A stretch of DNA of 64,000 nt from Ranitomeya imitator (GCF_032444005.1 NC_091285.1:620310001-620374000), one strand, 5' to 3'. Counted from the stretch's first letter, positions 23,701 to 47,700 are shown. Made by a program: numbers and translations. The notes: generated by a model not told the origin, from the letters alone.

Positions 23701-26700
23701 AGAAAGGCTCCAGCAGGCCGGCGCGAAAGTCCGGGAGAGGGTCGGATCTGAATCCGACCCCCCCCTGGATTTAAAGGCAGGATAGCGGTGGGGCTATAAA
23801 CGGAAGGGGGGGCCCTGCGAGGGGTCCCCCTGAGGCACTATAGAGCTGGTGCTGCCGCATAGACAGGGGCACAAGGAGCCCTGTGTCTCTATTGTGCCAT
23901 GCCTGCCTGCACTCCCCCCAGCCCCAACAGGAGCCCGCAGCTGGGCTGGGGTCCCTGGATGCAGGCGCAGTGTGCTGGCCCATGCTGGGAGCTGCAGAGT
24001 GCTGCCTGTACAGGCCCTACCTGAGGCGTCTCAACCTTATGCCCCCAGAGGGGGATTAGGGAGGGTGCTGCTGTCACCTTCAGGGGGCTTTATCCTTGCC
24101 TCGACCTCAACCCATAAACCAAAAGGAATTGGGGAAGGAGGGGGGTCTCGACTTCGAACCAGCACCCGAGGGACTGGGGAAGGAGCGACATTGGGAATAG
24201 CCATCCCAACTTCAACCGGGCACCCCGTAATAGGGGGCCGAGGAAGGAGCCATGCCGGGAGTCTCACAGGAGGCCCACTTTTCTTCATCTGTAATACCGT
24301 TGGAAAAAACGGAGTAAAAAATTTTTTTAGGTGTGCCTCCTATGCGACACTAAGCAAAAACTGGAGAAGGCTGACACCGTCCAGGGGTGTATACTGCAGA
24401 GGAGGAGCCACAGTTAATCTTTTTCAGATTATGCATAGTGTCGCCTCCTAGTGGACAGCAGCATAACACCCATGGTCCTGTGAACCCCAATGAGGCTACA
24501 GAGTAAAAAAATCAAATGCTGGAAAAATGCTAAGTGTGAACATAGCCCTAGTCAGCATACACACCTGGTTTTTCCCAGCATGCTCCATAATCTTCTCATA
24601 AACAATCTCATTCATGATCTGGAAACGTTTGATAGCCTTCTTTTCCGTGATCCCAACATACGTTTGCTCCAGAGGTACAGGACGAAAACTGTTTAAAAAA
24701 AAAAAAGAATGGATTATGAACCAGGGCAACTCAATTTAAAGGATGTAAAAAATATCAATGTTATAATATCGTGGCCTCGAATTACTTTACAAGCAGGACA
24801 AAAAGTACCTGTTGTCAAAATAGAAGAGTCCTTTAGCGGGATCGACACGAAGGAAAGTAGCAACATCTTCATAGTTGGGCAGGGTGGCACTAAGGCCCAC
24901 CAAACGAACATCTTCTTGCGTCATCTCTATGTTCCGGATTGCTCGGGCAACTAAAGATTCTAACACAGGGCCTCGGTCATCATGGAGGAGGTGGACTTCA
25001 TCCTGAAAAACAAGAGCAATGTTAGGAGACAATCTTCTGAGATCGATATAAAGATTAGTGAAATTCCAAGTGGAGAGGAACTGACCAGGATGATCAAACG
25101 GACCAGCTGAGTGTAAGTTCTCTCGCCTCCTTTACGAGTGATGATATCCCACTTCTCCGGCGTGCAGACGATAATCTGGGTAGCATTGATCTCCTCTTTA
25201 CACAGTTGATGATCACCTGTCAACTCGGCCACAGTGATCCCATATGTAGATAATCTCTGGACGGGCAGGAATAGGGGTGAGGAACACAAATCCAAACCCA
25301 TGGTGCAATCCACAAAGGGGGTTCAAACTAGGAGTCCAAATTATACAGATGTATTCTTACCTTACTGAAATTGCCCACCATTTCTTGTACCAAAGACCGC
25401 ATGGGAGCGATGTAAATAATTTTGAAGTTGTCGACATTGATGGTGCCATCTACGTTGATGTGCTTTCCAATCTCCCTCAGCATGCACATGAGAGCTACGT
25501 TTGTTTTACCAGCACCCTAGTGGACACAAATGAAGCAGAGTCACAGACTATCCACTAATACAGAGTACTACCATCCCCAGCATGCACTACATAAAATACT
25601 CACTGTGGGGGCGCAGAGAAGTAGATTCTCATCAGTATCCAATGCAGCTTTGAAAAGTTTGCTCTGTATCCTATTTAACGTTTTAAACCCATCAAACCCA
25701 GCCTGGGCATATTTTGGAAGTTTCTCAACAGGCAAAAGTTGCTAGGAAAAAACAAAAAACAAAACACAATTACATTTTAAATTTTCATTCAAACAGATAT
25801 TACCATTTCCATTCACCCTTCACTTACTTCATCTGCTGCAAATGGTTTTGGTTTCAGTGCAGGTACATGAACTTCCTCATATCCTTTTCTTTGCCGCCTG
25901 AAAGAGCCATCGGGAAGCTGGCAACGCTTGTTGGCCATGAAATGACTACCTTGCGCAAACACCAAGTCCTCAAGGTCCAAGACCTGACGTGGAGTAAACG
26001 ACTGTGGGAACAGAAGGCGCAGAGTTTAGATTACACTGCAAAGGAAAACGTAATCGTGCTTCAATTTACCATCTAAGCCATGATCTTACCTCCCCACCTT
26101 GCTCCATATCCATGCTCTCCAAGTCTGTGTCCACGCGGGACTGCCGTACCCTCTCCCTACGTGTGCGCTCCTCCTATTGGCAAAGTAAGCATAGAATCAG
26201 TAGCTGGAAACAAAATCTTCAAGAAAGCCCAAAGTGGCAGCAGTGGCAGAGGAGTTACACATCATGGCAGCCACATCGCCTAGAAGTTGAGGTGCAGTTT
26301 ACCAGGACCTTAACCACTACAAGTTACCCCTAAAAACAGATGTTCTGCATGTGCCTCATGTGACAAACAACGTGTGTCCTCTAAAGGACCCAAAGTGCGA
26401 TTCTCTATCTTCCCGTTTTTCACTAATGGAGTTCTGAGTTAAATATCACCCCTATCCACAATAATCTTGCCAAAGGGCAGACCACCCCCTCCATATAGAT
26501 TAAGAGCTAAGCTGTAGTGTCAAGGCGATATATTTATCTTTATACTTTTAGTACTTTAATATATACTTATGCTGTGAAACAATAAGTTTTTCTTTTTCAT
26601 GCTTGCTGATGCAAATTTAACTGTATTTAAGATGGCTCCCAGTATTCACCTTTGCCCCACTTTCACTCGGCTGAAGGAACAAGCTACACATTCCAGAAGG

Positions 26701-44700: not shown

Positions 44701-47700
44701 TGGTGGTCTTATGGTCGTGAAAAGCTATGTCAGTAAAACTTGAAGGAAAGAGCACCTGAATCCACGCTTCATACTGTAAAAGAGACCGGACCAGCGCTTA
44801 CTCATAGTGATGATCGAAGGAAAATGTTGCTGTTGTTTTTGGTCCAGAGGCTGGGGGCCATCCTCGCCCCTACCTCCTCGGCCCCTATTGTAAATAAGAA
44901 TTCCGGTGTCACTATTCTCTGGGTAAAACCTAACGGCCCCGGTAAATATCTGGAGATTTGATTTCTGCGATGTAGTCAAGTGCCCCGAGACTCAGCGGGT
45001 GGTAGAGGGAATTATCCAGTATTATATATGTGTTACCAGAGATAACAATTGTGCTGGGAAGATATTTTCATAATGTGTTTAACGGTGGATACTATGGGAA
45101 TTTAGGCCATATACAGCTCCAGGATATTAGCTTCAGACCAACCAAGACCCCCGTTACCAGTACAGCTAAAACAGGCCCAGGTGAACGTTTGCAAAATATA
45201 GTTAACGAAGTAATCCCCATTCCAGGTCTCAGTTGGCAAGAAGTTTTCTCCATAGAAACACAAACAGCCCCAAGGACAAATTTATGGTTAGAATGGGTAA
45301 GATACAATGTCAGATTATGTCCCACTAATTCATGAAGCACCCAAACTAAAGGTCCCAGGGGGGATAACCGTATTTGCTGATAATTATACCTGCTATAATT
45401 CCCATGACACTACAGGTACACCAGTAGGGGTCTTCGAGACAGGGTTCTGCAAAGAGAACAGTTCCCTGGATACTGATTTCCTAACTAATCATACACAGTA
45501 TATGTACGATATTTATTGGTTATGTGGAGATGGTAAGCTCCGTCCTAGGTTGCCTAATGCCTGGACAGGTCAATGTACCCTTGTTAAACTAGCTATGCAG
45601 TTCAAGATTTTACCTTGGGATCCAGAGACACCTGATGAATATACCAGAAAAAGGAGAAGTCTCGATCAGCTCCACATGAGTTATGAAGAAGATCCATTGG
45701 TAAATGTCGATGGCATTGGAATGCCAAGGGGGGTGCCTGACCAATTTAAAGCCGAGAACCAGATCTATGCTAGCTTTGCTTCTTTAATCCACAAGTGCAG
45801 ATTAATAGAAATGTTGATTGGATCAATTACATATATTACAGTGAACAAAGGTTTGTCAATTTTACCTGTGATGCTTTCCAAGGTGTAGTTGAGGAGTTGA
45901 GCCCTAACACTAGAATGACCCTCCAAAACCGACTAGCCCTTGATATGATCTTAGCTGAGAAAGGAGGAGTCTGTGGGATGGTGGGAGAGGAATGTTGTAC
46001 CTATATCCCTCAGAACTCTGGGGTAAATGGGAAGACCATCATAGCCCTTAAGAAGATAAATGGGTTAGCAGCAGAATTAAAAACTAATGCTGGAGTAGAC
46101 ACATCTTTCTTTTCCGGTTGGTTGGGTGGGCTCAAAGGATTCCTTCAACAAGCTTGTCTAGTACTGATTGCCCTTCTTGTAGTTGGATCGATAATCCTCT
46201 GTTGTGTTATTCCCCTGTATAAAAAGGTTATTGCTGAGGCAACTCCGACTGGCACCTTCCTTAACCAAGAAGTAGACCCACTAGAGTACGATGGTACTGA
46301 TCCAGGGGAGATCCCTAAGTACGTCCCCCTCAAGAAGATAGACAAAACCCCTTTACTCTCAGATGATGCTAAGAGATTTAGTTTAGGGACAGCGGGAGAA
46401 CTCCATGTGAAGCTAGTGAAGGGTTCAGCTGCCTGGAGGCCTCTCACAAGGGGAGAGCTTCTGAGGTGTCTGGATGAAGAAATCCACCTCCCCTTTCCCC
46501 ATCACATGGACAGTCTCGAAGGATCTTTCTTTTTAGGGAAAAACTTAGTGTTTAGGGGGGATTGTCAAGGTGAAAATATATTTATCTTTATACTTTTTGT
46601 ACTTTAATATATACTTATGCTGGGAAACAATAAGTTTTTCTTTTTCATGCTTGCTGATGCAAATTTAACTGTATTTAAGATGGCTCCCAGTATTCACCTT
46701 TGCCCCACTTTCACTCGGCTGAAGGAACAAGCTACACATTCCAGAAGGACAAGTATAATTTCTCTGGAAATGATACTTAAAGCGATGTGGACAAGATGTG
46801 GACAAAGGAAGATTCATCAGATGACGTCAGGACCAACCAGAAGGACTGAATACTAGATACATTGCTTAACCCCCGCCTAACCCCGCCCTCTGCACACCTT
46901 CCCCCAATAGATCATGTAATATTGTGTTTTAGGAAATAAAGTCAGTCGTTGCTGTGAGGTTACCACTACGTGTGGAAGCATAAGCAGACTGAGTTTGAAC
47001 CAGCATTGTGTCTGACTCATTCTTCACTCCGGTACCACTGCTTTTAATCTGATTTGGAATGACTGGTGGATGAAGGGTATTGTCGTGACGACCCCGACAG
47101 TAGTACGTACCGATCGTCACCAAACAGATCAGATCCGTACACTATTGTATAGGGCATATTATCTTTCAATTAAAATTTGCAGCCTTTGTTTAGATATGAA
47201 CACTTCTATTGTTTACAGCTCATTGCCTAGGAGACCGACCTCCGTAGCTGTCTAGCATGTAAGCACTGTGATGAAGTTGGCCAGCATTAGGAGGTAACTA
47301 CGCGCTCTAGTACTCCTGACCAGCATCAAAACAATAAACAATGCTGACAAGCTCAACAGGGAGGAGCTTGTAAGCACTGCTTATGTTCTGCTGCCTTAGC
47401 AGTGGTGGTTGGTCTCCAAGGTAACAAGCGGCAAACAGAGTATGAAGAGGAAAAGCATACTCCTATCAGCCACACCTGTTATTAGCAGCAGCAGGCATAG
47501 GCTGATGGGAGTAGTAGTCCCACCAGCCAGACGCCAGTGACCGGAGAAAAGTGTTTTACCTCCGACCGCAGCTACAGGCTAAGCTGTCTTTTGACCACCG
47601 TGTCTGCCGCGCTGTGAAGCACATGACAGTGTGGCAAACACTAGATGTTCGGGCCCCCAAACTTTTTTAACTGTTAGGCCAAACCCAAACATCCAGGGGT

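Follow-up and report, generated by a model that had tools for sequence, protein, structure and literature searches.

An intron of the core splicing gene SNRNP200 in Ranitomeya imitator contains a tandem array of proviral sequence, which is probably a defective provirus that integrated once, stands in the assembly as three units, and was multiplied long after its integration by unequal exchange. The array belongs to a kind of structure that is known from humans and plants, and it carries an unusually clean mechanistic record. In its mosaic long terminal repeats (LTRs), its identical units, and the empty site found in a related organism, the locus records the origin of a tandem provirus, a point that a study of plant tandems had left open.

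Architecture of the array and its single integration

Self-comparison and alignment of the window (the whole 64,000-nt stretch of DNA that was analyzed) gave four LTRs and three internal regions arranged head to tail on the plus strand, as the preliminary description had it, i.e., n internal regions with n+1 LTRs in one orientation (3 and 4). The GTAG target site duplication (TSD) is present at the outer ends alone, again as first described, whereas each middle LTR has a polypurine tract on one side and a primer site on the other in place of a TSD. The coordinates of all features are collected in Table 1. No substitution separates the three internal units, their sole difference being one unit of the 61-bp leader repeat, which has 8.7 copies both in unit 2 (34155-34682) and in unit 3 (40858-41385). 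Units 2 and 3, including their LTRs, are identical across 6703 bp.

Table 1. Features of the proviral array and of the surrounding SNRNP200 intron (window coordinates).
Feature	Position	Strand	Basis or remark
SNRNP200 exon after intron, 84 nt	26090..26173	-	translation, splice letters
Host intron, 21,555 nt	26174..47728	-	splice letters
Left TSD GTAG	26514..26517	+	single GTAG in empty site
LTR1, original 5' LTR, 536 bp	26518..27053	+	alignment
Internal unit 1, 6103 bp	27054..33156	+	alignment; includes primer site (27057), leader repeat, remnants of gag, pol (deleted) and env (broken), polypurine tract
Leader tandem repeat (perfect, 61-bp unit), just after primer-site region	27513..27979	+	7.7 copies
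pol remnants, unit 1: RT end, RNase H, integrase, several frames	29630..31389	+	tblastn with P0048, P0058, P0059
env remnants, unit 1, four pieces	31521..32946	+	tblastn
LTR2, mosaic, 539 bp	33157..33695	+	columns 9-61 as LTR4, 195-480 as LTR1
Internal unit 2, 6164 bp	33696..39859	+	identical to unit 3
LTR3, 539 bp	39860..40398	+	identical to LTR2
Internal unit 3, 6164 bp	40399..46562	+	alignment
LTR4, original 3' LTR, 537 bp	46563..47099	+	alignment
Right TSD GTAG	47100..47103	+	alignment
SNRNP200 exon before intron	47729..47865	-	translation, splice letters

That the array goes back to a single integration, as had been proposed, is borne out by the one outer TSD together with an empty site in a related organism (organism G, run X13). 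A contig of 2499 bp from this run carries the left flank at record positions 1837-2179 and the right flank at record positions 2175-2494, aligning to the left flank of the array up to window position 26518 and to the right flank from 47100, and the overlap consists of the duplicated letters, with a single GTAG. Since the contig joins both flanks with one GTAG, it represents the empty site; the flanks in organism G are ∼5% different from the window. The full bridge was counted in X13 only, X12 and X13 being one sample, and in X12 the same flanks are seen on a pair of contigs, of which one (depth, 12.4) ends soon after the site. In organism A (run X1, sample S1), a contig comprises the left flank plus 40 bases of LTR and has three differing letters, at least one of them within the LTR, so that a further haplotype carries the insertion as well. 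This flank comparison covers the assembled contigs of 4 of 20 public runs, from two samples. X1 and X2 have no coverage at 47115-47164, a hole that proves nothing; the best runs contained only 48% of the junction words and contigs lose rare variants, so that neither absence nor a solo LTR is implied. Contig depth was dropped as a measure of unit number, the summed depth of the family being in the tens of thousands.

An exact 4-bp TSD was found in four of the six two-LTR relatives examined and none in the other two; a 4-bp duplication is the norm of the family. Two independent insertions were ruled out by the missing inner TSD and by the LTRs held in common.

Mosaic LTRs and the growth of the array

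The two outer LTRs are separated by five substitutions (5 of 534 sites) and two indels, giving seven informative positions. At the first four of these (columns 9-61) LTR2 and LTR3 agree with LTR4, and at the last three (columns 195-480) they agree with LTR1, so that all seven sites fit one switch, located between columns 62 and 194, and the middle LTRs have the composition of 3'/5' recombinants without any private change. The letter that the middle LTRs share with LTR4 at column 61 is derived, as all 20 LTRs of relatives have the other letter, and so is the one they share with LTR1 at column 480, where 18 of these 20 LTRs have the LTR4 letter and 2 a third letter. The mosaic is based on seven sites, and a single switch with such polarity occurs in 6 of 128 random patterns.

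Over 6103 columns the internal copies show 0 substitutions versus ∼57 expected at the divergence of the outer LTRs (P = 3.4e-6). On these counts, the last common copy of the internal units would date from roughly the latest 7% of the time since insertion, a date that limits the last homogenizing exchange and not strictly the first tandem, since repeated turnover could hide an older one. Absolute ages from assumed rates (0.6-11 My for the insertion and less than 0.1-0.25 My for the expansion) were not relied on. Taken together, the mosaic middle LTRs and the internal identity set against diverged outer LTRs point to an array that most likely formed after integration, and recently.

The earlier idea that the expansion is the reciprocal of solo-LTR formation gains support from the mosaic middle LTRs, which the preliminary description had overlooked. 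In the history that we propose, the 3' LTR would have paired with the 5' LTR after the two had diverged, with a crossover in columns 62-194, and this first exchange would have left two units, with the partner chromatid reduced to a solo LTR. The 6.7-kb units would then have misaligned in a second exchange that produced three units and copied the same mosaic LTR, and a crossover downstream of the leader would yield a repeat pattern of 7.7, 8.7, and 8.7 copies. Given this pattern and the identical switch in both middle LTRs, the second exchange fits an event between whole units and not between LTRs. No viral enzyme would be necessary for such an amplification, and none is intact in the element; on this reading, dead proviruses can enlarge a 6-Gb frog genome through host recombination alone.

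The array is probably still expanding and contracting and, judged by analogy with the human HML-2 arrays, is likely a copy-number-variable accordion. If the number of units does vary, the locus offers a ready test of the effects of intron length on SNRNP200. We regard as rather unlikely the wider possibility that accordion arrays are live in the family, perhaps going straight to three units, with SNRNP200 alleles of a solo LTR or of one, two, three, or more units giving an intron of ∼1.5 to >21 kb and affecting splicing or output; if true, it would provide a naturally occurring allelic series in which an essential gene varies in intron length.

A second array, rival explanations, and published systems

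The same family forms a second array at G000:C4:228533409-228556042 (L006-L008), again composed of four LTRs and three units and flanked by a separate TSD (TATA). Its units of 6818, 6856, and 6862 bp differ among themselves by five substitutions and two indels, and it is older than the SNRNP200 array. Four of the substitutions are private, one of these sites having the same letter in two of nine relatives too, while one derived change is common to units 1 and 2; this one site would favor stepwise growth. A 6-bp indel in a poly-A run was left out of the history. Its middle LTRs have a derived change in common with the 3' LTR but none with the 5' LTR, so that half of a mosaic is shown. Since the units have diverged, the second array is not an assembler loop, indicating that such arrays are real in this genome. 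The rarity of the expansion product that was implied at first is overstated, given this second triple array and the publication of the structure for humans and plants. Junction searches returned the two arrays and one truncated junction, counts that are a lower bound because one search missed the known junctions of the second array.

A further copy (G000:C7:113090928-113097891, L010) has two LTRs, the 5' one of which is preceded by 158 bp of the internal 3' end. No additional LTR occurs in the 18 kb upstream of this copy, and no TSD is visible; either a tandem was deleted down to this remnant or the integration was aberrant.

The number of units in SNRNP200 could be partly or wholly an assembly error, with two real units or, less likely, one. 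An over-expanded assembly would look alike in having units 2 and 3 identical and LTR2 and LTR3 identical, the 5.96-Gb assembly holds no second haplotype of the locus for comparison (a two-exon flank query gave one match), and the available text of a preprint on human HML-2 elements describes the removal, after read checks, of 35 records with unsupported extra copies (10.64898/2026.09.22.753638). However, a loop arising from a single provirus would traverse just 133 identical bases, and a read of ∼7.2 kb is long enough for two mosaic LTRs; moreover, the leader of unit 1 is shorter by one 61-bp repeat unit, and the units of the second array are nonidentical. We judge such an error to be unlikely, are highly confident that at least two units are real, and consider it likely that there are exactly three.

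Other routes would lead to a real array without stepwise exchange. A one-LTR circle excised from the provirus and re-entering by homology, or repeated template switching during replication, would add two units in one step and leave the same mosaic junction, and both complete arrays do have three units, with no complete two-unit array found in the junction searches (best 40 of ∼2000 candidates each). These searches are incomplete, however, two arrays are too few, and in the second array the derived site common to units 1 and 2 favors steps, so that a one-step gain appears improbable. Insertion as a ready-made tandem, from a read-through transcript or concatemeric cDNA, with homogenization by later recombination, was proposed for plant tandems and left open in the available text (PMC11899658); the C7 copy (113.09 Mb), with its 158 bp of internal 3' end ahead of the 5' LTR and no visible TSD, could be taken in its favor. 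For SNRNP200 this route is very improbable: it would require that 18 kb be fully homogenized during the divergence of the outer LTR halves, and the middle LTRs, which lack private changes, hold derived changes in common with both outer LTRs.

Unequal exchange after integration, the reading we prefer, has close counterparts. Shared-LTR arrays of HERV-K(HML-2) are reported at 13 loci, with up to six copies and in 0.2-42% of haplotypes, and unequal LTR-LTR recombination, the reciprocal of solo-LTR formation, is proposed for them in the available text (10.64898/2026.09.22.753638); three-LTR tandems at two loci are described elsewhere (PMC11807958, available text). As in HML-2, LTRs and internal regions alternate at one site in near-identical units, and the fact that copies 2 and 3 are the closest there too, with the same mechanism proposed, may count for unequal exchange in the frog. 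Unlike HML-2, the frog element is a coding-dead class I element, described here from assembled sequence, whose array runs antisense to the core splicing gene that harbors it in an intron. The word "intron" has 0 occurrences in the main text of the HML-2 preprint, the supplements of which may hold LTR mosaics or intronic cases (10.64898/2026.09.22.753638).

Tandem LTR-retrotransposons of plants are described as common and polymorphic, the choice between tandem insertion and later recombination being left open in the available text, which also cites kangaroo, Drosophila, yeast, and TRIM cases (PMC11899658). The frog array is like these in its common internal LTRs, one TSD, and single insertion, variable unit number being a feature of the plant tandems; in contrast to them, its mosaic LTRs point to recombination after LTR divergence. 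In the available text of two papers on amphibian endogenous retroviruses (ERVs), "tandem" has 0 occurrences (10.1101/2024.07.05.601823; PMC12690878), and a further study states, in the text available, that its own method misses tandem LTR elements (10.64898/2026.10.14.759201). Searches of an open-access library returned no report of an amphibian ERV tandem array or of an insertion in SNRNP200.

The element and its host intron

By sequence similarity, the element appears to be a deleted and frameshifted relative of the cane-toad RMERV. In its TM part, Env shares 84% identity with RMERV Env at a query coverage of 68%, PF00429 was found in env, and the translation contains a visible TM motif, which we take to be the immunosuppressive domain and CX6CC. 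The integrase is closest to poison-frog proteins (83-91% identity), as would be expected for a frog host. As in RMERV-like ERVs, the LTRs have the form TG...CA and are accompanied by a primer site, presumably of the tRNA-Lys type, a polypurine tract, and a short TSD. The likeness to RMERV and the anuran epsilon-like clade lies in Env TM and integrase, and the LTRs are similar in length to those of ERV-Epsilon-Dti (495 bp; PMC12690878, available text), whereas the internal region of only 6.1 kb, the largely deleted pol, and the breakage of all genes set the element apart. The family comprises ∼1900-2000 LTR candidates in the genome (best 40 scored per search), and the nearest other LTR among these best 40 is 96% identical. 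The LTR pairs of six of six single-locus two-LTR relatives and of the C7 copy are 1-8 substitutions apart, suggesting that the family is young.

Searches of unit 1 with the Pol proteins of three relatives (tblastn) left their first 236-349 residues unmatched and gave no match to the protease, most of the reverse transcriptase (RT), or the RT-RNase H linker region; the remaining RT consists of ∼100 residues, its end. A three-frame Pfam scan recovered integrase and env alone, and the PDB matches of the integrase were weak and uninformative for genus. Stops and frame changes are the same in the three units, none of which has intact gag, pro, pol, and env. With protease and most of RT unmatched and the remnants split over frames, the element cannot supply its own enzymes. 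The gag remnant (28782-29114 and its copies) has a weak match to a RanBP2-type zinc finger (PF00641; E value, 1.7e-4), below the cutoff; RanBP2-type fingers are reported in Gag of AnERV9 in the available text of one study (10.1101/2024.07.05.601823). Elsewhere in the genome, at G000:C2:22575248-22576338, two family LTRs of opposite orientation stand head to head ∼30 bp apart.

The host gene, identified as SNRNP200 (BRR2_plug, PF21188; E value, 8.6e-9), lies on the minus strand, and the provirus is therefore antisense to it. The exons flanking the intron are presumably exons 9 and 10 in the numbering of the human gene. Without the 20,582-bp array and one 4-bp TSD, the intron would measure 969 nt instead of 21,555 nt, a ratio of 22.2 that agrees with the figure given earlier, and none of the other gaps between the coding stretches listed is as wide, the exon spacings being approximate. 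The inflation of an intron in an essential gene stands as described, but the surprise attached to it is lessened, because the element is antisense and the gene holds other multikilobase mobile elements between its exons, namely, ∼5-kb elements and one Tc1 copy. Antisense orientation is usual among intronic ERVs that are tolerated. On the SNRNP200 strand, AATAAA occurs three times per unit, which is unremarkable alone.

Several smaller features were seen around the array. Two element copies, 86-92% alike and both between SNRNP200 exons, occupy positions 1-5154 and 19409-24506; they carry RT, Dam-like methylase, and LAP2alpha-like frames, and we assume from their anatomy that they are DIRS-like. 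A Tc1-type transposon on the minus strand (6560-7657) has an open transposase frame of 366 residues, with inverted ends at 6329-6548 and 7739-7960 that are 97% alike. A 44-bp minisatellite of 23 copies occupies positions 50400-51415, within a host intron. Finally, a direct repeat pair of 450 bp (98%; 10593-11039 and 14334-14783) and an inverted pair of 202 bp (99.5%; 59499-59700 and 60922-61123) probably represent additional young mobile elements.
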